Shown here: positions 1,747 to 64,000 of the stretch, in pieces | How positions within the stretch are numbered: position 1 is the first letter of the stretch | Layout of the letters: every line of letters begins with the position of its first letter | Assembly: GCA_035541895.1 (NCBI GenBank) | Contig: DATKMK010000066.1 | Location: forward strand, 31,004-95,003 | DNA length: 64,000 nucleotides | Direction of reading: 5' to 3' | Source: Candidatus Binatia bacterium | Lineage (GTDB): Bacteria; Desulfobacterota; Binatia; HRBIN30; JACQVA1 | Notes under the pieces: generated by a model | Databases searched by the model: none | Seen by the model: the letters and a program-made list of their open reading frames with translations, nothing else | What the model was told of the DNA's origin: nothing | Made by a program: the position numbers and the translations under genes

Positions 1747-1750
1747 GTGC

Positions 1751-2662: not shown

Positions 2663-2666
2663 TCGG

Positions 2667-4789: not shown

Positions 4790-4794
4790 TCAAC

Positions 4795-6306: not shown

Positions 6307-6313
6307 GGACGCT

Positions 6314-33899: not shown

Positions 33900-33925
33900 C
33901 GCAGACTTTCGGTGACGAACCGGCC

Positions 33926-39755: not shown

Positions 39756-39764
39756 TCTAGTGTC

Positions 39765-40340
39765 TCACCGTGCCGCCGCGGCGTCCAGCGCCAGGTTGAG
39801 CTGCAGCACGTTCACGCGCGGCTCGCCGAGGAAGGCGAGCTGGCGGCCTTCGATGTGTTGCGTCACCAGTGCCTTCACGCGCGCCTCGTCGAGACCCCGG
39901 AGGCGGGCCACGCGTGGCACTTGGTAGTACGCCGCCGCCGGACTGATATGCGGATCGAGTCCGCTCCCGGATGCCGTCACGAGGTCCACCGGGATCGGGC
40001 CGGTCTGATTCGGGTCCGCGTCACGTAACGCGCTCACGCGGCCCTGAACCGCGTCATGCAAACCGTCGCTCAGCGGTCCCAAATTCGAACCGGACGACGC
40101 GCCGGCGCTGTAGGGCGAAGGCGAGGTCGCCGACAAGCGACCCCAGAAATATTTGGGGTCGTCGAACGGTTGTCCGATCAACGACGAGCCGATGACCTTG
40201 CCGTCCTTGGTGATCAGACTGCCCGCGGCTTGGCTGGGAAAGAGGACTTGGGCGATGCCGGTCACCCCCAGCGGGTAGACGACGCCGGTCAACACGGTCA
40301 GCGCGGCCAGCATGACAATCGCGGTTCGTAGTTCTTTCAT
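39765..40340 (-). CDS. kdpC: K+-transporting ATPase subunit C
   Basis: [24 protein letters not shown] ... GSLI ... [25 protein letters not shown] ... [16 protein letters not shown]: the KdpC pattern; 191 aa. Confidence 0.9.
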
Positions 40341-40350
40341 CGATATCTCC

Positions 40351-42438
40351 TCAGGCCAATCCCAGAGCGACCAGGATTATGTCGATCAGCTTGATGCCGA
40401 CGAACGGCGCGACGATTCCGCCGAGACCATAGATGAGCAGATTGTCGCGCAGCAGCGCGGCCGCCGGCACAGCACGATACCGCACTCCGCGGAGCGCCAA
40501 CGGGATGAGCGCGACGATGATCAGTGCGTTGAAGATGACGGCCGACAGAATCGCACTCTGAGGCGTTGCCAGCCCCATGACGTTGAGCATGCCGAGTACC
40601 GGATACGTCCCGGCGAAGGCGGCGGGGATGATGGCGAAGTACTTGGCGACGTCGTTGGCGATGCTGAAGGTCGTGAGCGCGCCGCGCGTCATGAGCAGTT
40701 GCTTGCCGATTTCCACGATCTCGATCAGCTTGGTCGGGTTGGAATCGAGGTCGACCATGTTGCCGGCTTCTTTCGCCGCCTGGGTTCCGGTGTTCATGGC
40801 CACGGCGACATCGGCTTGCGCCAGCGCCGGCGCGTCGTTGGTGCCGTCGCCCGTCATGGCGACCAGCCGTCCGCCCTTTTGATAGTCGCGAATGAGGTCG
40901 AGCTTTCGCTCGGGCGTGGCCTGCGCGAGGAAGTCGTCGACGCCGGCCTCGGCGGCGATGGCCGCAGCGGTGAGGGGGTTGTCGCCGGTGATCATCACGG
41001 TTTTGATGCCCATCCGCCGCAACTCGGCAAAGCGGTCTTTGATCCGCGTTTTGACGATGTCCTTCAACTGGATCACGCCCAGCACGTGTGCGCCTTCGGC
41101 CACAACCAACGGCGTGCCGCCCTCGCGCGCGATGATCTCGACGGACGTGCGCACGGCGACCGGGAAGCGGCCGCGCAAACTGGTGACGTACTCCTCGATG
41201 GCGTCGGCGGCACCCTTGCGCACTTGGCGGCCGTTGAGGTTGACGCCGCTCATGCGGGTTTGGGCGCTGAATGGGACGAACTCCGCGCCCAAGGCGTGCA
41301 CCTCGCGTTCGCGTATGCCGTACTTCTCTTTGGCGAGCACGACGATGCTCCGGCCCTCAGGCGTCTCGTCGGCGAGCGAGGCGAGCTGGGCAGCGTCCGC
41401 GAGTTGTTCGGCGTTCACGCCGTCGGCGGGAATGAAGGCCGTGGCTTGGCGATTGCCCAGGGTGATGGTGCCGGTCTTGTCGAGCAGCAGCACGTCGACG
41501 TCGCCGGCGGCCTCCACGGCGCGCCCGGAAATGGCGATGACATTGGCTTGAATCATGCGGTCCATGCCCGCGATCCCGATGGCGGAGAGCAGTCCTCCGA
41601 TCGTCGTCGGAATCAGACAGACGAGCAGCGCGGCGAGCACGGTGACGGTGATCGGGACACCGTGTCCGGCCTCGTTGACCGCGTAGATCGAAAACGGCAA
41701 CAGCGTGACGGTTGCCAACAAGAAGATGATGGTGAGCGCGGCGAGCAAGATGTTGAGGGCGATCTCGTTCGGGGTTTTCTGGCGGCGCGCGCCTTCGACC
41801 ATCGCGATCATGCGATCGAGGAACGTTTCGCCCGGATCGCTGGTGATGCGGACGACGATCCAGTCGGACAGCACACGGGTGCCGCCGGTCACGGCGCTGC
41901 GATCGCCGCCGGCTTCGCGGATGACCGGGGCGCTTTCCCCGGTGATGGCGCTCTCGTCGACTGAGGCGATGCCGATGGAGATCTCGCCATCGCTGGGGAT
42001 GAAGTCACCGGCGGGCACGAACACGAGGTCACCTTTGTGCAGCGACCCACTCGCGGTGGTGGTGAAACGTGCGGCGTCGGGCTTGAAACGATTGGGGTCG
42101 GGCGCGTGGTCGAGTTTCTTGGCGGTGATCTCGCGCCGCGCTTTGCGGAGCGCATCCGCCTGCGCTTTGCCGCGACCTTCGGCCATGGCTTCGGCAAAGT
42201 TGGCGAAGAGCACGGTGAACCACAGCCAGAGCGAGACGGCGAGGATGAATCCCGCGGGCGCTTCGCCGTGCCCACCGAGCGCTTGGAAGTACAGGCATGT
42301 CGTAATGATGCTGCCGACCAGCACCACGAACATGACCGGGTTCTTGAACTGATGGCGCGGATCGAGCTTCAACAACGACGCGACGAGCGCGCCCCGGACA
42401 ATCTCGGCATCAAACAACGGACGAGCTTTGGTCGACAT
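40351..42438 (-). CDS. kdpB: K+-transporting P-type ATPase subunit B
   Basis: [11 protein letters not shown] phosphorylation motif, [27 protein letters not shown], and the N-terminus [21 protein letters not shown], typical of KdpB. Confidence 0.95.
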
Positions 42439-42454
42439 GAACGAATCCTTTGGG

Positions 42455-44257
42455 TTACGCCAGCATCATCAAGTGTTCGACGATCGGTCCCAGCGCGAGC
42501 GCTGGAATGAACGTGAGCGCGCCGACGATGATCACCACCCCGATCAGCATGACGATGAACAGCGGCGTGTGCGTCGGTAGGGTTCCGGGACTCACCGGCA
42601 CCACTTTTTTCTGTGCCAGCGAGCCGGCGATCGCGAGCGTCGGAATCGCCAGCCAGTAGCGCGCGAACAGCATCGCGATGCCGCCGGTCAGATTGTAGAA
42701 GGGCACGTTGGCGTTCAACCCGGCAAAGGCGCTGCCGTTGTTGTTGCCCATCGAACTATAGGCGTAGAGAATCTCGCTGAAGCCGTGGACGCCGGAATTC
42801 AGCCGGCTGGCGACGCCCGCGGGCACGACAACCGCGAGAGCCGTGAAACCGAGGACGATCACCGGTGGGATCAGGATGACAAGCGACGCCATCTTCATCT
42901 CATAGGCTTCGATCTTCTTGCCGAGATACTCCGGCGTACGCCCGACCATCAGGCCAGCGACGAACACGGCGACGATCGCGAACATCAGCATGCCGTACAG
43001 CCCGGAGCCCACGCCGCCGTAGATCACCTCGCCGAGCTGCATCATGAACATCGGGACCAGTCCGCCCAGTGGAGTGAACGAAGCGTGCATCGAGTTGACG
43101 GAGCCGTTGGACGCGGCGGTAGTCGCCGTCGCCCACAAGGCGGAGTTGACGACACCGAAGCGAACTTCCTTGCCTTCCATGTTGCCGCCGGCTTGGAGCG
43201 TGCTGGCGGTCTGATCGGCGCCGAGGGCCGCGAGCTGCGGAGTGCCCCGCTGCTCGGACCAGACGCACAGGCCGAGGAGAACGACGAAAATCACCGTCAT
43301 GGCGGCGAGGACTGCCCATCCCTGACGGGTGTCGCCAACCATCTTTCCAAACGTGTAACAAAGCGCCGCCGAGATCACCAAGATTCCCAACGCCTCGATG
43401 AAGTTGGAGAGCGGCGTTGGGTTCTCGTAGGGATGCGCCGAGTTGACGTTGAAGAAGCCGCCGCCGTTGGTGCCGAGTTGCTTGATCGCGACCTGCGAAG
43501 CGGCCGGGCCCATCGGCAGCGTCTGTTCGGTCAACGGCACCGTTTCGGTTTTCGGCTGACCATGCTCGTCGAGGACCGCGTTGCCGTCGGCATCCTTGAC
43601 GGGGCTGCTGTAGGAAGTCGGCTGAACCAGCGTGACCGTCGCATACGGACTGAAATTCTGCACCACGCCCTGCGAAACCTGGACGAGCGCCCAGAGAATC
43701 GACAACGGCAGTAGGATGTAGAGTGTGGTGCGCGTCAGATCGACCCAGAAGTTGCCGATAAACTTGCTAGTCGTTTGACGCAAACCGCGAATGAGCGGAA
43801 GCAGAACCGCAATGCCTGCAGCCGCTGAGACGAAGTTCTGCACGTTGAGGCCGAGCATCTGCGTGAGATAGCTCATCGTCGATTCGCCGCCGTAGCCCTG
43901 CCAGTTGGTGTTGGTGGCGAAGCTGACCGCGGTGTTGAACGACGAGTCGGATGTGACCGCGCCGAGACCCTGCGGATTGAGCGGCAGAATGCCTTGGAGG
44001 CGCTGCAACGCATAGACGACGAGCAGGCCGAGCAAATTGAAGATCATCATCGCAACGGCATACGTTCGCCACGTCATTCCCTGCTCGGGATCAACGGCGC
44101 AGAAGCGATAGATCAGACGTTCAATCGGGCCGAGCACGCGATCGAGGATCATCGGCGGCCCGTCGAAAACACGCGCCATGTAAGTGCCAAGCGGCCGCGC
44201 GAGGCCGATCAGCACGACCATGTAGAAAACGAGTTGCAGGTAACCGTTGATTGTCAT
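42455..44257 (-). CDS. kdpA: K+-transporting ATPase subunit A
   Basis: The ATG at 44257 gives [31 protein letters not shown], then [10 protein letters not shown] and [10 protein letters not shown] selectivity-filter-like motifs. The ORF-track extension to 44689 runs through kdpF and the promoter. Confidence 0.9.
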
Positions 44258-44346
44258 CAAAACCACTCCGGCTTGAGCAAGGCGATGAACAGATAGACAA
44301 GTAACGCGAGCGAGATCACCCCGCCCACTGCATACAGCAGCGTCAT
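44257..44346 (-). CDS. kdpF: K+-transporting ATPase subunit F (29 aa)
   Basis: Translated by hand: MTLLYAVGGVISLALLVYLFIALLKPEWF. It ends in the KdpF-like L.YL..AL..PE.F pattern. The TGA overlaps the kdpA ATG (TGATG), and AGGAGG lies 8 nt upstream of its ATG. Below the ORF-track size cutoff. Confidence 0.8.
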   Translation of the reverse strand: MTLLYAVGGVISLALLVYLFIALLKPEWF

Positions 44347-44358
44347 GTGAACAGCCTC

Positions 44359-44439
44359 CTACAGTTTCTCGCAGAGGAGGATGAGTCCCCACGAGAGCGC
44401 GAAAAACGCGGCCGTGACCCCGAGATATAGAGCGTCCAT
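44359..44439 (-). CDS. Second tiny hydrophobic ORF (26 aa) at the head of the kdp operon
   Basis: Translated by hand: MDALYLGVTAAFFALSWGLILLCEKL. GAGGAGA lies 6 nt upstream of the ATG. Its TAG overlaps the kdpF Shine-Dalgarno (TAGGAGG). It lies immediately downstream of the sigma-54 promoter. Confidence 0.45.
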   Translation of the reverse strand: MDALYLGVTAAFFALSWGLILLCEKL

Positions 44440-44463
44440 GTGGTCTCCTCTCGCAGGTCGGTG

Positions 44464-44479
44464 AGCAGTGAACATGCCA
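44464..44479 (-). promoter_or_regulatory. Sigma-54 (-24/-12) promoter of the kdp operon
   Basis: The minus strand reads cTGGCATGttcaCTGCTcac against the consensus TGGCACG-N4-TTGCW. The invariant GG and GC are at the exact consensus spacing. It lies about 25 nt upstream of the first small-ORF ATG. The operon ends with a sigma-54-dependent activator gene. Confidence 0.6.
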
Positions 44480-44937
44480 GTCGTGCAGATTGATGAAGAT
44501 CGCAACTGTCCCGCGCCTGAGTAATGCAAAGTCTGCAGACTGCAAGAGCGAGTCGTGCGCGATGCATTCCAGGCGGTGCGAACCGCGCGACGTGGGAATT
44601 TGCGCTACTGAGATTTGTGGGCGCGGGCAGCTCGCCACGCTACGGGAGCCGACGCTGCGATGAGCAAGAACACGAGGATCATGGCTCACCGGTTACCCAC
44701 GTCGCCATCTCCTGCTGCGTCGTGGTCGCGAAAAGTTGCTGCCTCGCGCCGTCCGGCAACTGTGCGTCTTGCAGTTGCGCGCTCCCTCAAACCGCACGGT
44801 CGCATCCGATCCTCCTGAAAAGGCGCTTCCGATCGATGGGCGAGCGCGCTTGGTACGCTTCCTGCCATTGCGGATGCTCCAAGTGATCGCACAACCACTC
44901 GTGAGGTCGACCTCACAACAAGAAAAGGGAGAAAGCC

Positions 44938-47000: not shown

Positions 47001-47336
47001 ATGTCTGACGATGGCATCGTGTTTCGCGTTGCAGCCGACCGCGATCCGGGCGGCCTTGTTCTCGGCGACATTGTCGACGCCCACTTGGCGTACGAGCGTG
47101 CCCGTGCAGCCCGCTCCTTTTGGGTCAATCTCTTCGCCCTCCTCGGTATCGCTGCTGGTATTTCGACGTTGATTCCGGAGATTTTCGGTGTTCACGTGCA
47201 GCAGTCAGTCGGTGCCATGTGGGCTGCGTCTGGCGTCGTAGCGATCGGCAGAGTCATCGCCGAGCGGAAGTGGGCACGCCGACGATCCCAGCTGCTCGCG
47301 CAAAATGCCATCATCGAGGATAGCCGCGAGAGTTGA
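47001..47336 (+). CDS. Hypothetical small membrane protein
   Basis: ATG start and two hydrophobic segments (FWVNLFALLGIAAGISTLIPEIF, VGAMWAASGVVAIGRVIA). No recognisable family. Confidence 0.3.
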   Translation: MSDDGIVFRVAADRDPGGLVLGDIVDAHLAYERARAARSFWVNLFALLGIAAGISTLIPEIFGVHVQQSVGAMWAASGVVAIGRVIAERKWARRRSQLLAQNAIIEDSRES

Positions 47337-47372
47337 TAGCCGCGGCGCGACCTCCGAACCCCGGTCCCGTCG

Positions 47373-47456
47373 TTGCATTCCGCACGATCGCTCATTGCAT
47401 TTCGCAAGATAGCGCGTGGTTAGCGGGCTCGCGATCCTTGATTTTGCAATGTGCAA
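47373..47456. promoter_or_regulatory. Cluster of TTGC-N5-GCAA inverted repeats upstream of kup
   Basis: TTGCATTCCGCAC (47373-47385), TTGCATTTCGCAA (47395-47407) and TTGCAATGTGCAA (47444-47456). A related TTGCAATTTGCAT sits at 46882-46894. These are AT-rich motifs in a GC-rich background. Confidence 0.4.
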
Positions 47457-47491
47457 TGTTCGGGCACGACATACGCTGCTGCGACGCCCGC

Positions 47492-49477
47492 ATGGGTATT
47501 TCATTGCAGCAGAGGCGCCTTGAGGAAGCATCAATTGGGTACTTGGAGTCTGCGGCGAGGTTGTCGGAGGCATCGGGAGAAGACGCGTCCGAAGCGCACC
47601 ATGCGACGGCGCACGCTGGGAAGTCGCCGCTTGCGCTTCTGTGCTTGACGGCGATCGGAGTGGTGTATGGCGACATCGGCACCAGCCCGCTGTATGCGAT
47701 TCGCGAGTGTTTCTTCGGACCGCACGGAGTTCCGGTGAGTCAGGTCAACGTGCTTGGCGTGCTGTCGTTGATCGTCTGGGCTCTCATCATCGTGGTGACC
47801 CTGAAGTATCACGTCTATGTGTTGCGAGCGGACAACCACGGGGAGGGCGGCATCCTCGCCCTGATGTCGTTGGTACGGAAGGATCACGATCGTAGCGCGC
47901 GCGGAGCGGTCATGGTGGCGTTCGGACTGTTCGGTGCCGCGTTGCTCTATGGCGACGGTGTACTAACGCCCGCGATTTCGGTGTTGAGTGCGATCGAGGG
48001 CCTCGAGGTGGCGACCCCGTTCTTTTCGCCGTTCGTCGTGCCCATTACCGTTGTCATTCTGATCGGTCTCTTCCTGTTTCAACGCCGCGGCACGGCCGGC
48101 GTCGGGGTGATCTTCGGGCCCGTCATCTTGATCTGGTTTGCCACGCTCGCGGTCCTCGGCGTCATCAACATCGCGCACGCGCCGGGGGTTTTGGCAGCGG
48201 TCAACCCGGCCTACGCGATCACCTTTCTGCACCAGAATGGTGCCATGGGGTACCTCGTCTTGGGCGCGGTGTTTCTGGTGGCGACCGGTGGCGAAGCGCT
48301 CTACGCTGATCTCGGCCACTTCGGCGAGCTGCCGATTCAAATCGATTGGTTCGCGATCGTCGGCCCGTCGCTGCTGCTCAACTATTTCGGTCAGGGTGCG
48401 TTATTGCTGCACGACCCGGAGATGGCGCACAATCCATTCTATCGGATGGCGCCAAGTTGGGCCCTCTATCCGTTGGTTGTCCTTGCGGCGATGGCGACCA
48501 TCATTGCGTCGCAGGCGGTCATCTCCGGCGTGTTTTCGCTCACGCGCCAAGCGGTCCAGCTCGGCTTCGCGCCGCGGGTCGAGATTATTCACACGTCCTC
48601 GCGCGAGATCGGCCAGATCTACATTCCGGGCGCCAACTGGGGTCTCATGGTCGGCACGATCGGGCTGGTCATCGCGTTTCAAAATTCCAGCAACCTGGCC
48701 GCCGCGTACGGCGTCGCGGTGACGACCACGATGATCATCACCACGTTGCTGGCCTATGTGGTGTCGCGCCGTCTGTGGAAGTGGAGCCTGCCGGTTGCGG
48801 TGCTGGTGACCGTCGGATTTCTCATCGGCGACCTCGCCTTCTTCGGCGCCAACATCGTCAAGGTCGCGCAAGGGGGATGGTTCCCGCTGCTGATCGGCAT
48901 CGTGGGTTTTGTGCTGTTCACAACCTGGCAGAAGGGGCGGGCGCTGTTGGCGGCCGAACTCGACAAGACGGCGTTGCCGCTGAGCACCTTTGTGGAAGAT
49001 CTACAGCGCCACAATGTCACGCGGGTGCCGGGCACGGCGGTGTTTCTCAATAGCTCGGCAGAGAATACTCCGATCGCTTTGCTCCACAATCTCAAGTTGA
49101 ATCGAATGCTTCACGAGCGAAACTTCGTTCTCACGCTGGTTACCGAAGAGGTCCCCTACGTTCCCGCAGCGCATCGGCTAAGCATCGAGCCACTGGCGGT
49201 CGGCTTTTGCCGCTTGGTTGCCCGCTACGGGTTCAAGGAGGATCCAGATGTCCCCGCCCTGCTCGCACTCGCGCGCGAACAGGGACAACCCATCGATCCG
49301 GCCAACGTGACGTACATTCTCAGCAACAATAGCCTTATCCCAGGACGCGGTCCCGCGCTGGCACGCTGGCGTCGCCGCCTGTTCGTGTTCTTGTCGCGCA
49401 ACGCGTTGCGACCGTCACTGTTCTTCCGCTTGCCGCTCAACCGCGTGATCGAGCTTGGGATGCAGATCACGGTGTGA
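47492..49477 (+). CDS. kup: KUP/HAK/KT family potassium uptake protein
   Basis: LTAIGVVYGDIGTSPLYAIRECF, GEGGILALMSL, ATGGEALYADLGHFG and a C-terminal cytoplasmic domain. Start uncertain: ATG at 47492 or 47456; the ORF is open from 47333. Confidence 0.9.
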   Translation: MGISLQQRRLEEASIGYLESAARLSEASGEDASEAHHATAHAGKSPLALLCLTAIGVVYGDIGTSPLYAIRECFFGPHGVPVSQVNVLGVLSLIVWALIIVVTLKYHVYVLRADNHGEGGILALMSLVRKDHDRSARGAVMVAFGLFGAALLYGDGVLTPAISVLSAIEGLEVATPFFSPFVVPITVVILIGLFLFQRRGTAGVGVIFGPVILIWFATLAVLGVINIAHAPGVLAAVNPAYAITFLHQNGAMGYLVLGAVFLVATGGEALYADLGHFGELPIQIDWFAIVGPSLLLNYFGQGALLLHDPEMAHNPFYRMAPSWALYPLVVLAAMATIIASQAVISGVFSLTRQAVQLGFAPRVEIIHTSSREIGQIYIPGANWGLMVGTIGLVIAFQNSSNLAAAYGVAVTTTMIITTLLAYVVSRRLWKWSLPVAVLVTVGFLIGDLAFFGANIVKVAQGGWFPLLIGIVGFVLFTTWQKGRALLAAELDKTALPLSTFVEDLQRHNVTRVPGTAVFLNSSAENTPIALLHNLKLNRMLHERNFVLTLVTEEVPYVPAAHRLSIEPLAVGFCRLVARYGFKEDPDVPALLALAREQGQPIDPANVTYILSNNSLIPGRGPALARWRRRLFVFLSRNALRPSLFFRLPLNRVIELGMQITV

Positions 49478-49522: not shown

Positions 49523-50197
49523 TTAGCGGAGCTGCTGCGTCGTGCGGAAGTGCAGTTTGGCGACTTTGGCCAGTGCGGCCGCGCCGTGCTTGGCGACGTA
49601 ACGACGGCCGGATTCCAACACCGGCGGGCCCGCGCCCTTTGCGAGTTCAACGCCGACGCTCTCGCCGAGGCGCGCGAGACGACTGACGAACTCGCTGCGC
49701 GCGACGATGGATGCTGCGGCCACGGCGACGTCCTCCTCGGCGCGATGACGCTGTTCGAGGTGAACCGCCTTGCCCTTCGTTTGTAAGGCGCGCTGCAGCA
49801 CACGCTCGTCGGCGAACTGATCCGAGATGACGCGCGAGCACGCCACGTCGCCGAGGAGGTCCTCGATCGCGCGCGCGTGCGCCCAGGCCAGCAATCGGTT
49901 GAGATTCTTCACCTCGGCGTACAGCGAATTGTAGCGCTCGGGTCCGATGGCGACGACTCGTACCGGACAGGTGCGTCGGATCTCGCCGGCGAGCTCGCCG
50001 ATGCGTTTGTCCGACAACGTCTTGCTATCGCGCACCCCGGCCTGCCGCAGCAACGTCGCGCTCTGCTCGTGGACATAGACCGCCGCAACCACGAGCGGCC
50101 CGAAGTAGTCGCCTTTTCCCGCTTCATCGGTACCGATCCAACCGCCCGGAGCGGTCGGCGGCAACAGCGCAAAGTCCTTCTGAGTCGTTGTCGACAT
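49523..50197 (-). CDS. RNase HIII-type ribonuclease H, catalytic domain only
   Basis: IGTDEAGKGDYFGPLVVAAVYV ... GVRDSKTLSD ... ISDQFAD ... VAVAAASIVARSEF ... LAKGAGPPV ... KLHFRTTQQL is collinear with the catalytic domain of Bacillus-type RNase HIII. Only about 20 aa precede it. Confidence 0.7.
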   Translation of the reverse strand: MSTTTQKDFALLPPTAPGGWIGTDEAGKGDYFGPLVVAAVYVHEQSATLLRQAGVRDSKTLSDKRIGELAGEIRRTCPVRVVAIGPERYNSLYAEVKNLNRLLAWAHARAIEDLLGDVACSRVISDQFADERVLQRALQTKGKAVHLEQRHRAEEDVAVAAASIVARSEFVSRLARLGESVGVELAKGAGPPVLESGRRYVAKHGAAALAKVAKLHFRTTQQLR

Positions 50198-50235
50198 GCG
50201 CGCTTCGAATAGCGCGTCTGCTGGAATCAGTCACG

Positions 50236-50340
50236 AGGGGTGAGTGGTCAGAAGTGAGTCGTGAGCCGACTGAGCGGAGTGTCGTTCCGCCCACTCACTG
50301 TTCCCGACTCACCACTCACGACTCATCATTCACCACTCCC
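50236..50340. repeat. GTGAG-rich palindromic intergenic element, copy B
   Basis: GTGAGTCGTGAG (50254-50265) pairs with CTCACGACTCAT (50315-50326). Inner GCGGA/TCCGC hairpin (50274-50290). GGTGAGTGG near 50239 matches CCACTCACC-like arms downstream. The 3' end CACCACTCACGACTCATCATTCACCA matches copy A. Confidence 0.6.
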
Positions 50341-50386
50341 TTGACCCTGCATTCCCCCTCGCATAGTTCTCGCGCCCACTGGGAGG

Positions 50387-51580
50387 ATGTCGGTGGGTCG
50401 AGGTGACACGATCAAATGGATGCGACTGGTGGTCCTTGCGACCCTGCTGGCAGCGGGAGCACGTGCGGCGTGGGCCGAGCCGTATCTCGCGGTACGCGAG
50501 GGCTACAACTGCAGCGGTTGCCACACCAACGTGACCGGCGGGGGCAAGCGGACGGAAATCGTGACCACTCACCCGCGCGAGATCTTGCGCTACCCAGACT
50601 TCCTCGGAACGTTCTCCAGCCCCGCCGACAAGTTCACGGGTGAAGTCAACAAGTATATCGGTGTCGGCGGCGATTTGCGGGTCAGCAACCTCGCGACGTT
50701 CCAGGATCAAGGTGTGAACGGCCGGGTCGACAACAACAAGGTCTTCCGCGGTCGACTGGAGACCGACAGCCTCGACGCGACCGAAGCCGCGGTGTTTCTC
50801 GAACTCCGTCTGATTCCGGACGCCTTGAGTTTCTACGTCGATCAGCAGTTCGCCACGAGCACACAAACTCGCGAAGTGTGGGGCATGTTGCGCGGGTTGC
50901 CGTGGAACGGCTTCATCAAAGCCGGGCGTATGTTTCAGCCGTACGGACTGCAACTGCAAGATGACACCGCGTTCATTCGGGGTGGAGCGAACGTGTCGGC
51001 GACGACGAACTTCAGCTTCAACACCCGCCAACCCGCCGCCGAGATCGGCATCGAGCCCGGACCGTACAGCGCCATCGTCGCGGTATCCGACGGCACGTCG
51101 AATGACCGGGATCTGTGGGTCACGGGAACGGTCTCGGCGATGTGGACCGATTTGCCGGTGGTGCGCAACGTCTTCGTCGGCGGCTCGGCCGCACACATGG
51201 GCGGCCAGAGCGAGAATTTCGAGTTCGGTTTCTTCGGCGGCACCAACTTGGGGCCGCTGACCGGATTGGCTGAAGTCGATTTTCTCGACACCCGAACCCC
51301 GACCTCGGGTGGACATCAGGGCACGTTCATCAGCTACGGCGAATTGGACTACCTGGCGCTGGGCTGGCTCAACGTCAAAGGCGCCATCAGCTACGCCGAC
51401 GATGACGGCGATCTCTCCAGTCGCGCCGACGACAGTGAGAACGTCGTGCGCGTCGGCGTCGAGCCGTTCCTCAACCGATTTCTTCAGCTTCGCGTGTTCT
51501 ACCAAGTCAGCAACGGTGTCGAGAACAAACCCAATCACAACCAGAACCAGTTGCTCACCGAGTTGCATCTGTTTTTCTGA
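50387..51580 (+). CDS. Outer-membrane beta-barrel protein with an N-terminal CxxCH haem motif (Cyc2-like fused cytochrome-porin candidate)
   Basis: Signal peptide (..MRLVVLATLLAAGARAAWA), then a single CSGCH 12-16 residues into the mature protein. About 350 aa of alternating amphipathic strands follow (AVFLELRLIP, YSAIVAVSDG, LWVTGTVSAMW, FISYGELDYLALGWLNVKGAISYA, LQLRVFYQVS), ending ...LLTELHLFF with a C-terminal aromatic. The start is 50387 or the ATG at 50420. Confidence 0.5.
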   Translation: MSVGRGDTIKWMRLVVLATLLAAGARAAWAEPYLAVREGYNCSGCHTNVTGGGKRTEIVTTHPREILRYPDFLGTFSSPADKFTGEVNKYIGVGGDLRVSNLATFQDQGVNGRVDNNKVFRGRLETDSLDATEAAVFLELRLIPDALSFYVDQQFATSTQTREVWGMLRGLPWNGFIKAGRMFQPYGLQLQDDTAFIRGGANVSATTNFSFNTRQPAAEIGIEPGPYSAIVAVSDGTSNDRDLWVTGTVSAMWTDLPVVRNVFVGGSAAHMGGQSENFEFGFFGGTNLGPLTGLAEVDFLDTRTPTSGGHQGTFISYGELDYLALGWLNVKGAISYADDDGDLSSRADDSENVVRVGVEPFLNRFLQLRVFYQVSNGVENKPNHNQNQLLTELHLFF

Positions 51581-51629
51581 CGCGCCGCGGAGCGCGCGGG
51601 CGCCCGGCTTCTGCAAATCCGCCAAGGTG

Positions 51630-52616
51630 CTACGGCTGTGCGCCTTGGGTGATCCAATCGCGGATCAGCTGAACCTGCGCGGCGCTAAGGGGCGCCTTGC
51701 CGGACGGCATCGGGGCGCCTTGAGCGAGCGTCGGGTTGGTGAGCTTGATTACCAGGAAGCTGTTGTCGGGATCGCCTGGTTTGACCCGCAGCAATCCGGC
51801 TTGCTGCGCCGAGAAGTTCGCCGCGGTCACGTCGACCAATTGATCGTAGGACCTGCCGTCGGTGAGGATGAGGTTGCCGGCTTGGCTCTGGCTGGAGTGA
51901 CACAGCACGTCGGCGCAGGTCGCGTCGAAGATCTGGGTCTGAATGTTCGCCAGTGTCGCGTCGGGGTTGAAGGTCGGCGTCGACGTGATCGTTGCCGTTG
52001 CCGTCGGCGTCGGTGACGCGGTCGGTGTTGGCGTCGCGGTCGGTGTTGCCGTGGGATGCAATGTGCCGGTCGGTGTGATGGTTGGCGTGGGCGTCTGAGT
52101 TGGCGTCCCGGTGTCGGTCGGAGTGGCCGTCGATGTGGCGGAACCGGTGGCGGTGCTCGATGCGGTCGGGGTGGGTGTGACCCCTTCGAATTCCGGTGCG
52201 CCGGCAGCGATCCAGTTGCGAATCAGATCGATCTGCGCGGCCGACAGCGGCGAGCCCGACTGCGGCATCAGCGCACCTTGGGGGGCGCTCGGATTGGTCA
52301 CTTTGATCAGCAGAAAGCTTGCGTCGGGTTGGAACGGCGCGACCCGTACCAGACCAGCGTTGCGCGCGGCAAGATTGTTGGAGAGTACGTTGACGAGTTG
52401 CGAGTACGACACCCCCTCGACGAGCGCCAGGTTGCCGGCGGGGGCGACTAGGTTGTGGCAACTGCCCGCGACGCAGCTTTGGTTGAAGATTTCCCGTTGG
52501 ATGGCGGCGAAGCCGGTGCCGCCGCTGGTCGTCGCCGGCCCATTGCCGGCGCAGCCGAGTGCGCACGCGGCGAGCGCGAACAGCACGGCCGACGGCCTCG
52601 CGAGCGAGCACCTCAT
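51630..52616 (-). CDS. Lipoprotein with two PSCyt1-like (planctomycete-type cytochrome c) domains carrying CX4CH motifs, joined by a Pro/Thr linker
   Basis: Lipobox in MRCSLARPSAVLFALAACALGCAG. Domain 1: IQREIFNQSCVAGSCHN ... GNLAL ... PDASFLLIKV ... MPQSGSPLSAAQIDLIRNWIAAGAP. Domain 2: IQTQIFDATCADVLCHS ... GNLIL ... PDNSFLVIKL ... MPSGKAPLSAAQVQLIRDWITQGAQP. A roughly 65-aa TPT-rich linker separates them. Confidence 0.55.
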   Translation of the reverse strand: MRCSLARPSAVLFALAACALGCAGNGPATTSGGTGFAAIQREIFNQSCVAGSCHNLVAPAGNLALVEGVSYSQLVNVLSNNLAARNAGLVRVAPFQPDASFLLIKVTNPSAPQGALMPQSGSPLSAAQIDLIRNWIAAGAPEFEGVTPTPTASSTATGSATSTATPTDTGTPTQTPTPTITPTGTLHPTATPTATPTPTASPTPTATATITSTPTFNPDATLANIQTQIFDATCADVLCHSSQSQAGNLILTDGRSYDQLVDVTAANFSAQQAGLLRVKPGDPDNSFLVIKLTNPTLAQGAPMPSGKAPLSAAQVQLIRDWITQGAQP

Positions 52617-52665
52617 GGCAGCGACCAAATGGTGGCGACCAAACGCAACCGGAGCCGGGAGCGAC

Positions 52666-53013
52666 CTAGAGGCCCTTCGCCCCGCTGACTTGAATGCTGG
52701 CGACACCTTGCTTGACGAACTTCTTGCCGCTGATTTCGGCGCGCACGCCGGCGAGCTTCTTCGCGGCCTCGTACGGCGAGGTGTTGTCGTGATCTTCGAT
52801 CAACAAGTACACCTCACCCGCATCGGTAAGCACGCCGATCGGCACGCCTTGCTTGGCGCACAACTGGGCGCAGGCCTTGTGAGACGGGCCTTGGCTGCCT
52901 TTGGCCATATAGCAGGCCATATCGAGAATCTCGCCCTGCACCGTCACGGCCTCCTGCGCCGAAAGCGGCGCGGCGAGGACCAAAAAGGCTAGGGCGATCC
53001 GGCGGAGATTCAT
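52666..53013 (-). CDS. Small secreted protein with three cysteines, unknown function
   Basis: ATG at 53013 preceded by GGGAGA. MNLRRIALAFLVLAAPLSAQEA signal peptide, then DMACYMAKGSQGPSHKACAQLCAKQGVPIGV. The longer ORF to 53511 overlaps the lytS-type gene start region and looks non-coding. Confidence 0.5.
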   Translation of the reverse strand: MNLRRIALAFLVLAAPLSAQEAVTVQGEILDMACYMAKGSQGPSHKACAQLCAKQGVPIGVLTDAGEVYLLIEDHDNTSPYEAAKKLAGVRAEISGKKFVKQGVASIQVSGAKGL

Positions 53014-53223
53014 CGAGGTCTCCCTTTTCAAACGTCGTCGGAGTGAACTAGTATGTGCGGGGTAGAGCATTGTCAATTTTCCTCGCGCGCAACAGAGTGG
53101 CGACCGCTCAGACCGATTTATTGCGATGCTCTTCGGTCGAATTGGCAGGATATGCGGTCGCAAACGAGGCTGGAGTTCCGAGGTGGGTCGCTCGCGCGGA
53201 ACAATTGACCGGTTGGCCACAAC

Positions 53224-54402
53224 GTGAGTGACAGAGCCATGAAGCGCGCGCAACATATTGTCGAGGGCGCGGCGCGTCTCGAACGCTGGCGCGGCGACGT
53301 ACACATGCGCGCAGAAAACGCCTTTCGGCAGCAACTCGGATTCGTGTATGGAACCGGGCTGGCGTACGGTCTCCACCTCGGGTTGATCCATCTGTATCTC
53401 TTCCGTTCGCCGCGCGCGCTGTTGGCGTTCACGGTCGCGACACTGATTTTTTCCTCGCTCACCCTCGTGCTGTGGAAGTGGGTGCTGCCGCTGTTCTCCG
53501 ATTGGCCGCACGGGCGGCGGCTGGCGGCACAGATCGCGGTGGGCGTGGTGGCCTTCGCGACGCTATCGGTGCTGACGACCGAAGGCAACGCAGCGCTGTT
53601 CGGAGGGCTATCGATTTTTCACCCGTATCAAGGCGAGGACATCGCCGTCACGATTCACCGCGAGGCGCTGCAGCGCGCACCGCTGATCTACACGCTGATC
53701 CCAATCGTGCCGACCGTGCTGCTGTGCGTGGTCGGATTCAATCAGCACTGGTGGCGGATCGTGACCCTGGAAGGGCGCGAGCGCGAGCTGCGGGAGCTGG
53801 CGGTGTCGGCGCAGCTCGCGGCCCTGCGGGCGCAACTCAACCCGCACTTTTTCTTCAATAGCCTCAACTCGATCGCGCAGTTGATTTCCACCGATCCGGC
53901 GAAGGCGGAGGCCTGCGTCGAACGGCTGGCGGAGATTTTCCGCTACATGCTGCGCCGCGGTCACACGGAGTTCGTGCCGCTCCAGGAAGAGTTGGAGATC
54001 GCCGAGGCGTACTTGGAAATCGAGCGGGCGCGCTTCGGCGATGATCTGGCCGTCGACGAGCAGATCGACGAGCGCGCCCGCGCGGTGCGACTGCCGGAGC
54101 TGATCCTGCAACCGCTGGTGGAGAACGCCGTCAAGCACGGCGTGTCACGCAAAATCGGCGGCGGTCAGGTCCGCATCGAAGCCGCGTTCGACAACGGTGA
54201 TCTGCGCCTCACGGTTGCCGACACCGGGGCCGGGATTCAAGATGCCAGTCGAATTTTTGAATCGGGCGTCGGGCTGAAGAACGTGCGCGCCCGCTTGCTT
54301 CGGTTGTACGGGCCGGCGTATGCGCCGGTGGTCAAGAGTATCGCGGGGCACGGAACGACGGTGACGCTGCGGATTCCCACGACGACAGTGAGCACTGCAT
54401 GA
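53224..54402 (+). CDS. LytS/YehU-type sensor histidine kinase
   Basis: N-terminal hydrophobic helices, then LRAQLNPHFFFNSLNSIAQLI (His_kinase, LytS-type H-box), LQPLVENAVKHG and DTGAGI ... GVGLKNVRARL (HATPase). Start at the GTG at 53224 or the ATG at 53239. Confidence 0.85.
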   Translation: MSDRAMKRAQHIVEGAARLERWRGDVHMRAENAFRQQLGFVYGTGLAYGLHLGLIHLYLFRSPRALLAFTVATLIFSSLTLVLWKWVLPLFSDWPHGRRLAAQIAVGVVAFATLSVLTTEGNAALFGGLSIFHPYQGEDIAVTIHREALQRAPLIYTLIPIVPTVLLCVVGFNQHWWRIVTLEGRERELRELAVSAQLAALRAQLNPHFFFNSLNSIAQLISTDPAKAEACVERLAEIFRYMLRRGHTEFVPLQEELEIAEAYLEIERARFGDDLAVDEQIDERARAVRLPELILQPLVENAVKHGVSRKIGGGQVRIEAAFDNGDLRLTVADTGAGIQDASRIFESGVGLKNVRARLLRLYGPAYAPVVKSIAGHGTTVTLRIPTTTVSTA

Positions 54403-56805: not shown

Positions 56806-58677
56806 ATGCGGAGCAGCGTCGTTCGTGGAACGGTCGTAAGCTGCGGGCTGTTCCTGCTGACGGGCGTCGTTGCCGCCGCGGACACCGCGCCCGGCGACGC
56901 GAATTGCGACGGTGCGATCACGACCACCGATGTCGCGGTGCTCGAAGAAGTCATCTTCGATGGCAGCGGATGCGCGGGTGCGGACGTGAACCAGGACGGC
57001 CGTTTGGGTGCCGCGGATCTGACGGCACTGGTCCTCATCGTGGTAAACTCGACGCCGACTCCGACTTCAACGGCATCGCTGACACCAACCGGTACGCTGC
57101 CGACCGTGACGCTGACTCCGCTCCCGAGCACGACGCCGAGCCGAACCCGCACCGGGACGCCGACCGCGACCTCATCCGTCACGCCGACCGATACCCGATC
57201 GCCGTCGCCAACGATCACTGCGAGCGGCGCGCCGACTGAAACCCGGACGCCATCGCCGAGCCTCACCGCATCATTGACGCCCAGCCCGTCGGTGACCGCG
57301 AGCGCCTCAGTGTCGGCAACAGCGAACACGACGCCGAGTAGTCCGACAACTTCGCCCACGCGTACCCGGACGTTTACGATCACCGCGACCCTGACGATCA
57401 CTCCGACGGACACGCGAACCCGCACGCCGACGCCTACGATGACACCGACGATCACGCCGACATCGACGCGTACGCGGTCGCCATCGCCAACACTGACGCC
57501 GACACGCACGCCGACGTCTACTCCGACGTTGACCCACACTCGGACGCCGACGGTGACGCCGACCGTGACGCCGACCCCAACGTTGCGGGCCACCCCGAGC
57601 TTCACCATTACCGCGACTTCGAGCCGCACGCCGTCGGAGACGCCTTCGCCGACCATGACGCGAACGCCGACGGTTTCCGGCACGCCGACCAACACTCTCA
57701 CCCCCTCGATTACGCCGACGGTGACGCTGACCCGCACCCCGACGGCAACGGGAACTCCAACCATCACGTCGACCGTGACGCGCACGCCTTCAGCCTCCGC
57801 GACCGCAACGATTACCCGGACCGGCACGGTGACGCGCACCCCGAGCGTGACGCCAACCATCACTCAGACCAGGACGGCCACACGCACGCCGACCCTGACC
57901 TCCACCAGAACGCCCTCCGCGACCCCGACCATCACGCCGACAGTGACGAATACGCGGACCCCGACTGCAACTCCGACGCAAACCCGGACACGAACACCAA
58001 CGCCCACAGTCACACCCACGCCGACCCTCACACCGTCGCGAACGCGGACGCCGACGGTACCCCGACCGTTCGGAGCCCAAGTGACGTACTTCGGGATCGC
58101 GAACGCGGACGGGCGTGTGCCGACGCCGATCGGGAACGATCCCGGGGGAACGCCGATCTTTACGCGGGGCACCGGTTTTGGATTTCTCTTCGTCGTCGAA
58201 GGGCGGCGCGGAACGAGTGGCAGCCCGGTCGGACAAAAGGTCTTCAACTACGATCCCAACGATTCCACCGTGCGCCCGGACCTCCAGATCCTGACCGATA
58301 CGGCGCTCGGCGATGGCAGCACGGCAGTCTGTGACACCGGCGGACTGCCCCAGGCGACCCCCAATTTGACCCCGATTCCGGCTGGTGGCGTCCCGGCGTC
58401 GGCGCTCACCTTCGGCCCGGGGCAGGCTATTTCCGACGCGATGAATGATTTGGCGTGCCGATTCGATGTCCACGAAACCGCCGATCGTGCGTGCACCCTC
58501 GACAGCGGCGGCAACTTTGCCTTCGCGGGCAAGGACGCCGGCAGCGAGATTCAGTTCTGCGGCGTCGCGACGCATACGCTGACGTTGCGGAGCGGCGACA
58601 CCAAGCTGAGCGCGCAACTCGTCGACGCCGCCGGCCATCTTGGCGACCGGCGCAGCATCATCATACGGGTCCCGTGA
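56806..58677 (+). CDS. Secreted protein: N-terminal dockerin-like repeats, ~335-aa Pro/Thr-rich spacer, ~200-aa C-terminal domain of unknown function
   Basis: Signal-like N-terminus. Ca-binding dockerin loops [21 protein letters not shown] and [20 protein letters not shown]. The T/P/S/R low-complexity region corresponds to 57049-58060. The C-terminal domain is [13 protein letters not shown] ... [10 protein letters not shown] ... LQILTD. Confidence 0.6.
57049..58060 (+). repeat. Pro/Thr-linker coding low-complexity DNA (imperfect ACGCCGAC / ACCCCGAC periodicity)
   Basis: About 1 kb encoding TPTxTxTPT... strings. It generates a long VGV-rich antisense ORF (56787..57863) that is an artefact. 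Confidence 0.8.
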
Positions 58678-59219: not shown

Positions 59220-62200
59220 CTACGGCCGAACCGCCAACCACGCTGGAATATCCGCCGCGGTCACGGCGCCGTCGCCGTTCACATCGGCACGCAAATACAG
59301 CTGATCTAGAAACAGCGCAGTGATCAACGCGTCGAGGTCGTGATCGTCGACGACTCCGTCGTTGTTGACATCACCGGGAAGTGGGGTCGCCGTAGCGGTT
59401 GGGGTGCGCGTTGCGGTCGGCAGCAACGAGCCGGTTCGTGTCGGGGTGCCGCTTTGTGTCGGGGTTGGCGTGATCGTGGCGGCACGCGTCGTTGTGATGG
59501 TGAACGTCGGCGTGATCGTTGGCGTCGCGGTGTTGGTGACTGTGGCTGCCGGGGTCTGGGCTTGGCCTGAGAAGAAGCGCGCATAGAGCAGCAAATTCTG
59601 CACCGCCGGTCCGTCGGAGTTGTCGCGACCGGTCCAACAGTACGCGAGCGTGGTGACGATCACGCGGCCGGCGCCGTGGGTGTACTCGATGAAGGACGGC
59701 CCGTTGCCGTTCTGCAGGACCACCTTCGCATCCGCGGGCAGGTTGTTCAGCGCGCCGTTGTCGGTTGAGCCCCAATTGGTGAAATCGCTGCGCCCGAGCG
59801 CGACGCCGCCGTAACCGACGCCGGTGAGATACGCGTGGTTGGGGAGCAGCGTCGATTCGATATTGTTGCCATCCGTCGGCAGGAAACCGACGCCATCGGG
59901 TGCGATGATGTTCTGCGGCGCATTGCCGGTGGAGGGGTCGTTCGCGGCGTTGACCACCACGACGCCGCCCGCGCCGGCAAAGCGTTCGAGGTATCCGCCG
60001 CTGGCCGACAACGAACGCAACAAGTCGTAGTCGTCAACCGATAGACCCGGTGCGACATAGACAGCTTGAAAGACTTGCTGATCGGCCACCGGATCGCGGT
60101 GCTGCAACGACGTCAGTTGCGGGCTCCCGGACGAGAGAGTGAGTGTCAGGGCGACTGAGTTGATGCACGCCACCTGGTCGTCTGCATTGAGGGTGCCGCT
60201 CGGAAACAGAAAATCGATTCGCGGCTGCAACGTCGGCGTTGCCGTCGGCGGCGTCCCGGTCCGAGTCGGTGTGCGAGTACTGGTGGCCGTCGCACTGGCC
60301 GTTTCGGTGGTGCTGGGAGTCGGCGACGGCGTTGCGGTCGCCGCGGGCGGAATGGCCGTCAGACTTGGTGAGGGGGTCGAGGTGGATGAGACCGTTGTCG
60401 CAAGCACCGACGTGCCGGTTGCCGTCGCGGTTGCGGACGGAGGAGCGGTCGCGACCGCGGTGCCCGTCGGCGTCGCAGACGGAGTCGACGAATTGCTCGG
60501 CGTTGCGGTCGCCGGCTGCGTCCCGGTCGTGGTGATCGTTGCGGTCGCGGTGAGCGTGACAGTCGGTGAACGCGTTGGCGTGCCGGTATGCGTGTTCGTT
60601 GGGGAATTCGTCGGTGTCGCGCTCGGAAGCGGAGACGCGGTGGCGGAGGCGCTGGCGGTCGCCGACGGCGTCGGCGATGCGGACGCAGTGGCGGTTGGTG
60701 TTGCTGACGACGTTGCGGTTGATGTGGGCGTATCCGTCGCCGTCGGGGGCGCTGTGATCGTGAAGGTAAACGTGGCGGACGGAAGCGGAGTCGGCGTCGC
60801 GGTTGGCGTGTCGGTCGGCGAGGGGGTTGCGGTTGCTGTATCGGTGAACGTCGGCGTGGCCGAGGCGGTATCCGTTGGCGTCGGGCTCGCAACAAACGAT
60901 GGATCGAACGCGACCTCGACGATTGCCTGCGTCACGATCACACGCTCGGTCCCGGTCGAGTGGCGAACCCCGAACTCCGCCCGATTGAGATCAGTGATAC
61001 CCCACGGAACCTGCGTGACCGGATTGAACGGCTCGATGCGCGCGAAGCCGGTGAGAGTTGCGCCGAACACGACGGCGCTCTCGAACTGCACCGGGGTGAC
61101 GCTCGACCCGCCGCACGCCGCCGAGTCGATGCCGACAAACAGGCCGGACGCCGGCGCCTGCGCCGGATCCTCGGAGCCAGTGATCGAAAATTTGGCGGCG
61201 ACGACCTGCCCGGTCACGCCCAGCGGAGCGAGGCTCTGATGACAAAAGGAACTCTTCGCGTTCGGCTGCGTCGAGGTCAGACCCGGTCCGGCTGGTGGGA
61301 CCGGGGCGACGCACAAGTAGTCGGCGCCGCCGCACCCGGGTGGAGCGGGGCCCCAATCGATGAACGTGGCGTCTTGGTTTACGCGCGCGCCCACGATGCG
61401 GATGGTGCCTGGCCAGATGTCGCTGCGCGAAATCGTGTGATCGTCCCAGATCAAGGTCAGGGTGCTGGTTGCCGTCTGATCGGCCCCGATGATCGTGTTG
61501 TCGATCGCGACGTTGGTGGCGTGCGCGCCGAGCACTTCAGTAATCCCGGCGACGCGCAGTTCGACGGAGCCATTCCCGCTGCCCGCCTGATATTGGACCT
61601 CGTAATGTGTGAACGACGGGCACGCGGTCAGCGCGCTGGTCGACGTGCCGATGACCGTGCCGCCGACCCGGATCGATGCAGTCCAGTTGGAGTTGAGGAA
61701 CAACTCCACCACGTCGGTGCTGCCGGCTCGCCAGCTCCGCACGCGTCGAGGTTGCGGCAGCGTGTTCGAGAGCCGGCAGACGTAGACGCCATCGGTAAAG
61801 ACTCCGCTGGCGCTGCTGATCCCGACCGTACCGAACGACGGCGACATGCTTCCGGTGGTGCGCAGGACGTATTGCCCGCTGTGCGGCGACGGCGTCGCGA
61901 GAACCTCGGCGGTGCCGCCGTAGTCGTTGAGGGATCCGCCTTCAAACCCGTTCAAGCGGTCGACCGACCGCAGCGTGGGCGGCGTCGGCGTGAGCGTGGC
62001 CGTACGCGTGGGGGTGCGGGTCGCGGTGGCCGTCGGGGTTGCGGTAGCGGTTCCACTCGGCGTCGCGGTTGCCGTGTCGCTCGGTGTGGCTGTGGGCGTT
62101 GGTGTTGCCGTCGGGGTGAACGTTGATGTCCACGTAAAAGTCGCGGTCGCAGTCGGGGTGAACGTAAATGTCGGCGTGGCGGTCGGCGTGGCGGTGTTGG

Positions 62201-63668: not shown

Positions 63669-63739
63669 GTGCGTATGGGCGCGTTGACTCGACAGAATGC
63701 CTTTGATACCTAGGCCGCGCTTCCGGCACAAGCTCGCCG

Positions 63740-64000
63740 CATGAAAATCCCCGCTGTGAAAGGATTTCGTGACGTCCTTCCGGACGAGAGTGCGCGCTGG
63801 ACCTGGATCGAGCAGCGTGCGCGCGACGTGTTTCGGCGCTACCACGTGCACGAAGTCCGCGTTCCGATCGTCGAACGCACCAATTTGTTCACCCGCTCAA
63901 TCGGCGACACGACCGACATCGTGGAGAAGGAGATGTACACGTTCCTCGATCGCGACGAAACGTCGATCTCATTACGACCGGAAGGTACGGCTTCGGTTGT
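63740..64000 (+). CDS. hisS: Histidine--tRNA ligase, N-terminal part (continues beyond window)
   Basis: Hand translation from the ATG at 63740: [86 protein letters not shown], which is class II HisRS motif 1 and the KEMYTF/LRPEGT signature. It has no stop before the window end, so it is absent from the ORF track. Confidence 0.9.

Follow-up and report, generated by a model that had tools for sequence, protein, structure and literature searches.

A predicted family of fused cytochrome-porins outside Cyc2 as defined, with a conserved lipoprotein cytochrome partner

Cyc2 is the main marker gene for mapping microbial iron oxidation in metagenomes. As defined by Keffer et al. (2021, PMC8406198), a Cyc2 protein has a signal peptide, one CXXCH motif with AXPXFAR[Q/K][T/Y] upstream and PXL downstream of it, and a 16-strand barrel like that of OprO/P. 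The upstream sequence was an inclusion criterion for the Cyc2 tree, and the PXL lies about 4 residues past the CXXCH (PMC8406198). FeGenie adds hidden Markov models (HMMs) and a minimum length of 365 amino acids to the definition. Here we describe a gene from a Candidatus Binatia bacterium that encodes a fused monohaem cytochrome-porin of 397 amino acids, above the Cyc2 minimum, as indicated by the list of open reading frames (ORFs) and by its homologues. It occupies positions 50387..51580 (+) of the 64,000-nucleotide stretch of DNA analysed, called the window below. Our analysis leans, by somewhat more than an even chance, towards a new family of fused cytochrome-porins that would form an electron conduit across the outer membrane together with a lipoprotein cytochrome. 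The conserved module, as predicted from sequence, comprises two or three genes: the cytochrome-porin, a lipoprotein that carries FoxE/PSCyt1-like c-type domains of the His/Met type, singly or as a pair, and, at part of the loci, a Cys/His protein. We consider it probable that this architecture and module are real and redox-active, and we put forward Fe(II) oxidation specifically as a tentative suggestion, drawn from analogy.

The original prediction, made from the DNA sequence alone, described the product as a candidate Cyc2-like protein with a Sec signal peptide, a CSGCH motif about 12 residues into the mature protein, a barrel and a C-terminal ELHLFF, and this architecture was confirmed in every detail. 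The N-terminus, MSVGRGDTIKWMRLVVLATLLAAGARAAWA followed by EPY, reads as a Sec signal peptide that ends LLAAGARAAWA/EPY. The predicted signal peptide covers residues 1-30 (50387..50476, +) and has an AxA cleavage site; cleavage is placed after AWA, and the invariant block A30-E31-P32-Y33 begins exactly there in the alignment. With the alternative start at ATG 50420, which has a GAGG 14 nt 5' of it, the signal peptide would be 19 residues long. The N-terminal haem module spans residues 31-90 (50477..50656, +) and carries the signature AEPYLAVREGYN-CSGCH-TNVTGGGKR. Its CSGCH (C42-H46; 50510..50524, +), a haem c attachment motif predicted from sequence and conservation, is the sole CxxCH in the 397-residue protein and lies 12 residues past the predicted cleavage site. 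Residues 91-397 (50657..51577, +) make up a predicted 16-strand beta-barrel, as judged from AlphaFold2 secondary structure, Foldseek and hhalign, and end in ELHLFF. No family in Pfam or NCBIfam matched the ORF, and neither phmmer with the protein nor hmmsearch with the family profile returned anything significant from PDB sequences. A promoter and terminator scan of 50100-53400 was uninformative.

The protein belongs to a large family. At E<=1e-3, a word-indexed search found 592 homologues and a profile search of 1.84 billion representatives (a 50%-identity library) found 939 clusters, with family members also present on >557 metagenome contigs. As CxxCH is kept in all full-length members of these two sets, the ORF is a real gene, far beyond chance. 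The few homologues that have names are all called 'hypothetical protein' and come from metagenome-assembled genomes (MAGs) labelled Binatia, Deltaproteobacteria, Ignavibacteria and Gammaproteobacteria. We found no description of the family in the literature; it is large and unannotated, and it appears to be undescribed and to escape curated libraries.

Conservation centres on the haem motif, and loss of this motif in relatives had been named in the original prediction as a finding that would speak against it. CxxCH is instead retained in 119 of the 120 closest homologues, the lone exception being truncated at its N-terminus, and by every full-length distant representative; among 223 family sequences, down to ~25% identity, its C, C and H are 100% conserved. 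The strongly conserved block around it gives the family signature AEPY.AVR.G.KCS.CH.N.TGGG[KM]R. Twelve residues are invariant in 66 sequences, again to ~25% identity (P32, C42, C45, H46, G51, G53, R55, E163, G180, G187, G221 and G265). At the other end of the protein, 104 of the 120 closest homologues terminate in F and 16 in L. The final strand (E.H.FF) contains H394 (51566..51568, +), which is found in 95% of the 223 sequences and is the sole conserved His or Met besides H46; from this conservation, we propose it as a candidate second axial haem ligand.

The AlphaFold2 model of the porin-cytochrome, built from a 31-sequence alignment, has a mean predicted local distance difference test (pLDDT) score of 72.7 and a predicted template modelling (pTM) score of 0.71, with 16 beta-strands between residues 91 and 396. 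A fold other than a barrel, combined with no significant hit to Cyc2 HMMs, had been the second outcome set against the original prediction, and the predicted fold is a 16-strand barrel. Foldseek against the PDB gave best matches that are all 16-strand porins, namely PorB (4aui, 1.3e-12), OprO (4rjw, 1.2e-10; 4rjw and 4rjx both match at ~1e-10), OmpT, VhChiP and OmpF. Residues 23-58, in the N-terminal module, are modelled with low confidence, which lends some weight to the idea that the protein is no cytochrome, with the CxxCH of an otherwise ordinary porin serving to bind a metal or form a disulphide, or with the ORF itself being an artefact. We regard this as barely credible, given the complete conservation of C, C and H, the position of the motif directly after a Sec signal peptide, as c-type maturation requires, and the hundreds of conserved full-length homologues.

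To place the family relative to Cyc2, genome contigs were scanned with a degenerate DNA pattern for FAR[QK][TY]…CxxCH…PxL. This yielded 120 reference loci, including those of Acidithiobacillus (L013 and the near-identical L114), Sideroxydans (L037), Gallionella (L059) and Leptospirillum (L077), from which 78 full-length canonical Cyc2 proteins were extracted. PxFAR[QK][TY] is present in 78/78 of these Cyc2 proteins and in 0/223 relatives of the window protein, which reads AEPYLAVRE at this place. Likewise, CxxCH-x3-4-PxL occurs in 71/78 reference proteins and in none of the 223 relatives, the window protein having CH-TNVTGGG. The pattern CxxCHxNx.GxG shows the opposite distribution, being found in 215/223 relatives and 0/78 Cyc2 proteins. 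The only upstream motif that the two groups share is A-x-P-x-hydrophobic-A, which stands in the same register before CxxCH in 188/223 family members and 64/78 Cyc2 proteins.

As a proxy for the FeGenie HMMs, Cyc2 HMMs were built from the 78 proteins, and all scores were taken on mature sequences. With the pooled HMM the window protein scores -2.3 bits, and the family has a median of 5.1 and a maximum of 21.6 bits, as against controls of <=4.6 bits for shuffled and <=5.7 bits for reversed sequences. With four cluster-specific HMMs, the window protein scores between -2.4 and 2.9 bits, whereas Cyc2 proteins from other clusters reach 15-51 bits. As both defining motifs are missing and the Cyc2 HMMs built here miss the window protein, the family is, on sequence grounds, a lineage separate from Cyc2 and outside Cyc2 as defined. 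The membership in Cyc2 that had been suggested for the protein is accordingly not supported.

Profile-profile comparison with hhalign points to a more distant relationship. A full-length local alignment of the family with the 78 Cyc2 proteins has a probability of 98% and an E value of 1.7e-13 over 316 collinear columns. The barrel alone matches the Cyc2 barrel (probability 94.7%, E 6.3e-8; reversed control, Prob 0.1), as does the haem module alone its Cyc2 counterpart (96.2%, E 2.5e-9), with cross-domain and reversed controls at <=4.6%. When the five CxxCH columns are removed from the haem module, however, the match falls to a marginal 4% with E 0.01, so that a shared porin ancestor, with the haem motif gained independently, could account for the profile relation. 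Homology between the two haem modules was considered and left unestablished, as their similarity vanishes with those columns. The family is probably a remote relative of Cyc2, or at least its structural twin, with the evidence for common ancestry coming mainly from the barrel and the shared architecture.

These comparisons bear on whether the window protein might nevertheless be a true Cyc2 orthologue, an energy-conserving outer-membrane Fe(II) oxidase in an iron-oxidising lithotroph. Identical architecture and size and the significant profile-profile similarity would suit such a reading, as would the finding that accepted Cyc2/Cyt572 members share as little as 11% identity (PMC10654088). We nonetheless judge it improbable: both defining motifs are absent from 223/223 relatives, the cluster-specific HMMs separate the window protein from Cyc2 of other clusters, the conserved partner genes described below occur at 0/120 Cyc2 loci, and no cyc1, oxidase or carbon-fixation gene lies nearby in the window. 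A FeGenie-based study also lists no cyc2 for its Binatia MAG (PMC12482716), although this is weak evidence.

Convergent to the porin gene and adjacent to it is the gene for the partner lipoprotein (51630..52616, -), whose translation has a Pro/Thr-rich linker between two domains that resemble c-type cytochromes. This neighbour had been put forward as a putative dihaem lipoprotein that might accept the electrons. The two haem-type motifs are indeed present, though as CxxxxCH rather than CxxCH, and the conservation of the gene neighbourhood speaks strongly for a role as redox partner. The domain is ~110 amino acids long. Its first copy carries CVAGSCH (C48-H54; 52455..52475, -), with M117 of an invariant MP as presumed distal ligand, and its second CADVLCH (C234-H240; 51897..51917, -), with M303 presumed to serve likewise. 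In the AlphaFold2 model, two confident helical domains (residues 35-137 and 222-323) are separated by the linker (51957..52181, -), which is predicted to be disordered (pLDDT <50). A lipobox, ...LFALAACALG-C22-AGNG, can be read from the sequence, and its C22-A-G is nearly invariant among two-domain homologues. Across the partners a lipobox is almost always present, in most ORFs in the form ..GC/AC-AG[DSG]G. The database version of the window partner (P0297) starts 10 residues later than the version used here.

All 62 two-domain partner homologues have CX4CH twice. In a set of 22 diverse domains, the invariant features are C-x(2-5)-CH, S, K, MP, L and W. The Cys spacing nevertheless varies within this orthologous domain (CX4CH in 41, CX2CH in 10, CX5CH in 6 and CX3CH in 2), with CH and MP invariant throughout, and such CX2-5CH variation is unusual for c-type cytochromes. 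Against PDB sequences, the partner profile gave its best match to FoxE (5mab, E 7.8e-6), covering both FoxE domains, followed by the C-terminal haem domain of hydrazine synthase alpha (1.9e-4) and, weakly, cytochromes c6. The two-domain partner profile, by comparison, matched nothing other than low-complexity sequence through its linker, which is an artefact. Weak Pfam matches to PSCyt1 or Cytochrome_CBB3 were obtained in 10-11 of the 22 partner members, and the window partner scores 16.4 bits with PSCyt1 (cut-off 22) and 33.5 bits with TIGR03806, the SO2930 dihaem model (cut-off 313), both below threshold. The partner-type domain is also found fused to other extracytoplasmic modules, such as CHRD and Big_7 in an ORF of locus L125 (5521-7002, -), and several homologues (among P0359-P0362 and P0371) combine it with PF17963/PF17892.

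To determine how consistently the partner accompanies the porin-cytochrome, the partner-domain HMM was run over the window, 80 metagenome loci that contain family members and three additional loci, with counts made on non-redundant loci. These were divided into 59 distant loci (<48% identity) and 22 close ones (>=48%). Of the distant loci, 47 have the partner directly upstream in the same orientation and one has it directly downstream, again in the same orientation; it was not found in 11, of which 6 have flanks too short to tell and 5 have flanks of at least 1 kb on both sides. Among the close loci, a two-domain partner is convergent and adjacent in 4/22 (the window, L127, L129 and L139). The partner lies within 1.3-3.2 kb in 2/22 and is immediately upstream on the same strand in 1/22; no partner was found in 6/22 with flanks of at least 1 kb on both sides and in 9/22 with flanks too short to tell. 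The same domain HMM found the partner in 0/120 canonical Cyc2 loci.

Individual loci illustrate the arrangement. In a Gammaproteobacteria MAG (L125), a single-domain lipoprotein with CTNCH is encoded directly upstream of the porin homologue with a 4-bp overlap, and in one NCBI MAG the partner and porin homologues have consecutive locus tags (HY699_24335 and HY699_24340). At L003, the gene that is convergent to and directly downstream of the porin homologue was rejected as a partner, being unrelated to that of the window; the real partner lies 3.2 kb away. At L001, no partner was found within 8 kb. Flanking stop-to-stop ORFs were also clustered all against all; the outcome was noisy, the DNA being high in GC, and was used only to spot extra dihaem cytochromes in a few loci. 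Genes for such proteins, of the Cytochrom_C/Cytochrome_CBB3 type, stand beside the porin-cytochrome at some family loci (L172-L175, L199 and the P0213 contig).

The gene neighbourhood, the most informative result of the analysis, bears on a reading in which the porin haem has no part in electron conduction and instead serves as a structural plug, gates the pore by sensing gas or redox state, or takes part in haem or iron acquisition. In its favour, the barrel is most similar to diffusion porins, the conserved charged residues R55, E163, K178, D192/D193, R198 and E219 could line a selective channel, and the neighbours in the window include transporters and a two-component system. A dedicated and often translationally coupled c-type lipoprotein is hard to explain without electron transfer, however, and the only characterised proteins of such architecture are redox enzymes (PMC8406198). 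We consider a haem without a conduit role unlikely.

A third gene, 50 bp upstream of the partner and on the same strand, encodes a small secreted Cys/His protein of 116 amino acids (52666..53016, -). Its motif, GE..D..CY...G..H..CA..C...G.P.G.LT...L...H, includes three invariant Cys and two invariant His. The gene stands beside the module in 28/84 family loci, as opposed to 0/120 Cyc2 loci, and its position and orientation differ between subfamilies. That the adjacency survives rearrangement is good evidence that the gene is functionally linked to the module. The protein has 410 homologues, all named hypothetical, and gave no match to Pfam or the PDB. It may be a metal- or cluster-binding carrier.

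Taken as an electron conduit, the cytochrome-porin and its partner would work as follows. The Ccm/Ccs machinery would attach haem c to C42/C45, and the beta-barrel assembly machinery would insert the barrel into the outer membrane, which is consistent with the C-terminal FF. The haem peptide would then sit in the pore or at its periplasmic mouth, as modelled for Cyc2 (PMC8406198; PMC9040806; bioRxiv 10.1101/2021.03.22.436458). A small dissolved redox species could enter the pore and exchange electrons with the haem, reducing it if the species is a reductant. Fe(II) would be the most likely substrate, a suggestion drawn from the analogy to Cyc2 and, to a lesser degree, to the FoxE-like partner; Mn(II) and organic shuttles are equally open. 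From the porin haem, the electron would pass to the tethered lipoprotein cytochrome, perhaps through the Cys/His protein, in analogy to rusticyanin and Cyc1 of the rus operon, and the lipoprotein cytochrome would in turn feed the respiratory chain. Cytochromes with His/Met ligation usually have a high potential, and such a partner fits electron uptake.

The direction of electron flow is not fixed by any data here, and the same hardware might run in reverse or serve another purpose, exporting electrons to Fe(III), Mn(IV), humics or chromate, or detoxifying reactive oxygen species or metals at the cell surface. The invariant partner Met marks the domain as the His/Met type, which is typically of high potential and would be ill-suited to the reduction of Fe(III) minerals at neutral pH. 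In addition, a single haem within a narrow porin cannot reach solids, and there are no quinol dehydrogenase or multihaem genes near the locus. On the other side, the host lineage is not a known iron oxidiser, the Cyc2 pathway of A. ferrooxidans has been described as reversible (bioRxiv 10.1101/2021.03.22.436458), and Cyc2 has been proposed to act on Mn(II) in Ca. Manganitrophaceae, which leaves the substrate range open (PMC9040806). On balance, we find export or another surface function rather unlikely.

Several observations weigh against an electron-conducting family related to Cyc2, and they temper the modest preference that we give it. The window protein goes undetected by the Cyc2 HMMs built here, pooled as well as cluster-specific, and the likeness of the haem modules is marginal once CxxCH is set aside. 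Within the subfamily to which the window protein belongs, fewer than half of the loci have the partner next to the porin gene, and 6/22 lack it within flanks of at least 1 kb. Foldseek on the two-domain partner model gave no match. Finally, the 64-kb window contains no terminal oxidase, ccm or carbon-fixation gene.

The genes around the porin-cytochrome locus encode KdpABC and KdpDE, Kup, RNase HIII and a LytS/LytTR pair, none of which looks functionally connected to it. Next to the locus there is no oxidase, ccm or other electron-transport gene, and no cyc1 is nearby. The RNase HIII-type ribonuclease gene (49523-50197, -) is immediately upstream of the porin-cytochrome gene and divergent from it; its TIGR00716 match (204.6 bits) spans model positions 82-284 of 284, leaving the N-terminal part of the model unmatched. 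A Kup K+ transporter (47333-49477, +), together with a complete KdpABC K+-ATPase, KdpD and a sigma-54-type response regulator (35410-44689, -), forms a potassium-uptake island just upstream of the porin-cytochrome.

A secreted cupredoxin encoded 16 kb away had also been mentioned in the original prediction. A cupredoxin is present at about that distance (33926-34663, -), with a likely start at MSIAVLIL… and a type-1 copper-like C-terminal site YCTMHQPAM (YCTMH....M); it reaches 23.9 bits with Cupredoxin_1, short of the cut-off of 27. Nothing links it to the locus, and it was rejected as part of the module; its gene lies directly upstream of a chromate transporter gene (32724-33986, -), with a slight overlap in the ORF calls.

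Elsewhere in the window, five complex-I/Mrp-like genes (34-7096, +) encode two Proton_antipo_M proteins, an NADHdh protein, a fused 30 kDa/49 kDa subunit and a 20 kDa subunit with a 4Fe-4S dicluster domain. The cluster resembles a group 4 membrane-bound hydrogenase-like or Mbx-type module, and its first gene may run off the start of the window. Two proteins of 1543 and 623 amino acids (59220-63851, -, and 56806-58677, +) have dockerin type I as their only recognisable feature, which is unexpected in this lineage. Polysaccharide biosynthesis genes are also present, and no gene in this remainder of the window seems functionally tied to the module.

A second family with the architecture of Cyc2 would mean that surveys based on Cyc2 motifs and HMMs miss candidate outer-membrane oxidoreductases, and the family occurs in lineages not linked to iron cycling. 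It is conceivable, although we hold it doubtful, that this widespread module lets abundant uncultured bacteria of soil and sediment, Binatia included, oxidise dissolved Fe(II) or other soluble metal or redox species while being missed by FeGenie-type tools. If iron or metal oxidation is indeed its function, lineages that oxidise iron at the cell surface are undercounted and marker-gene surveys overlook a widespread system. The module also offers a compact, testable system for the hand-over of electrons from a single haem in a porin to the periplasm, a step still unresolved for Cyc2. In addition, a haem motif that varies from CX2CH to CX5CH in a single orthologous domain is of interest for how specific cytochrome c maturation is.

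Among known systems, the family most closely resembles Cyc2, as represented by A. ferrooxidans Cyc2, Mariprofundus Cyc2PV-1 and Leptospirillum Cyt572, with which it shares a signal peptide, one CxxCH ~12 residues in, a 16-strand barrel, a length of ~400 amino acids and an aromatic C-terminus (PMC8406198). For Cyc2PV-1, the midpoint potential is 208 mV. The window family differs in having CH.N.TGGG[KM]R, where three extra residues follow CH, a conserved last-strand His (H394) that is without equivalent in Cyc2, a length of ~360-410 amino acids where most Cyc2 proteins have ~420-500, and conserved neighbour genes that are found at none of the 120 Cyc2 loci. The partner recalls FoxE, the dihaem Fe(II) oxidoreductase of Rhodobacter ferrooxidans SW2 (5mab), in its two tandem domains with a haem motif each, its ...PGDP..S..., its invariant RMP and its C-terminal WI..GA helix. 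This similarity is weak, at 13 bits per domain, and is common also to PSCyt1 and the hydrazine synthase haem domain. Whereas FoxE is periplasmic, the partner is a lipoprotein with a long Pro/Thr linker and CxxxxCH in place of CxxCH, and no foxYZ genes are near it.

In the rus operon of A. ferrooxidans, Cyc1, a c4 dihaem cytochrome, and rusticyanin are periplasmic acceptors encoded beside Cyc2 (bioRxiv 10.1101/2021.03.22.436458); we propose such a role for the dihaem lipoprotein and perhaps for the Cys/His protein. No sequence relationship was detected, however, the window partners being a PSCyt1/FoxE-type lipoprotein and an unclassified 116-aa protein. As in the trans-outer-membrane electron conduits MtrCAB, MtoAB, PioAB and Geobacter Pcc/Ext, an outer-membrane barrel, one or more c-type cytochromes and a periplasmic or lipoprotein partner are encoded together, here as a proposed conduit. 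The MtrCAB-type barrels have at least 20 strands and sheathe a separate deca- or multihaem protein (in part after PMC9040806), whereas the window family has one haem fused to a barrel of 16 strands, with mono- or dihaem partners. Fused monohaem cytochrome-porins are a kind already known; what appears to be new is a family with its own signature, an extra conserved His and its own partner genes.

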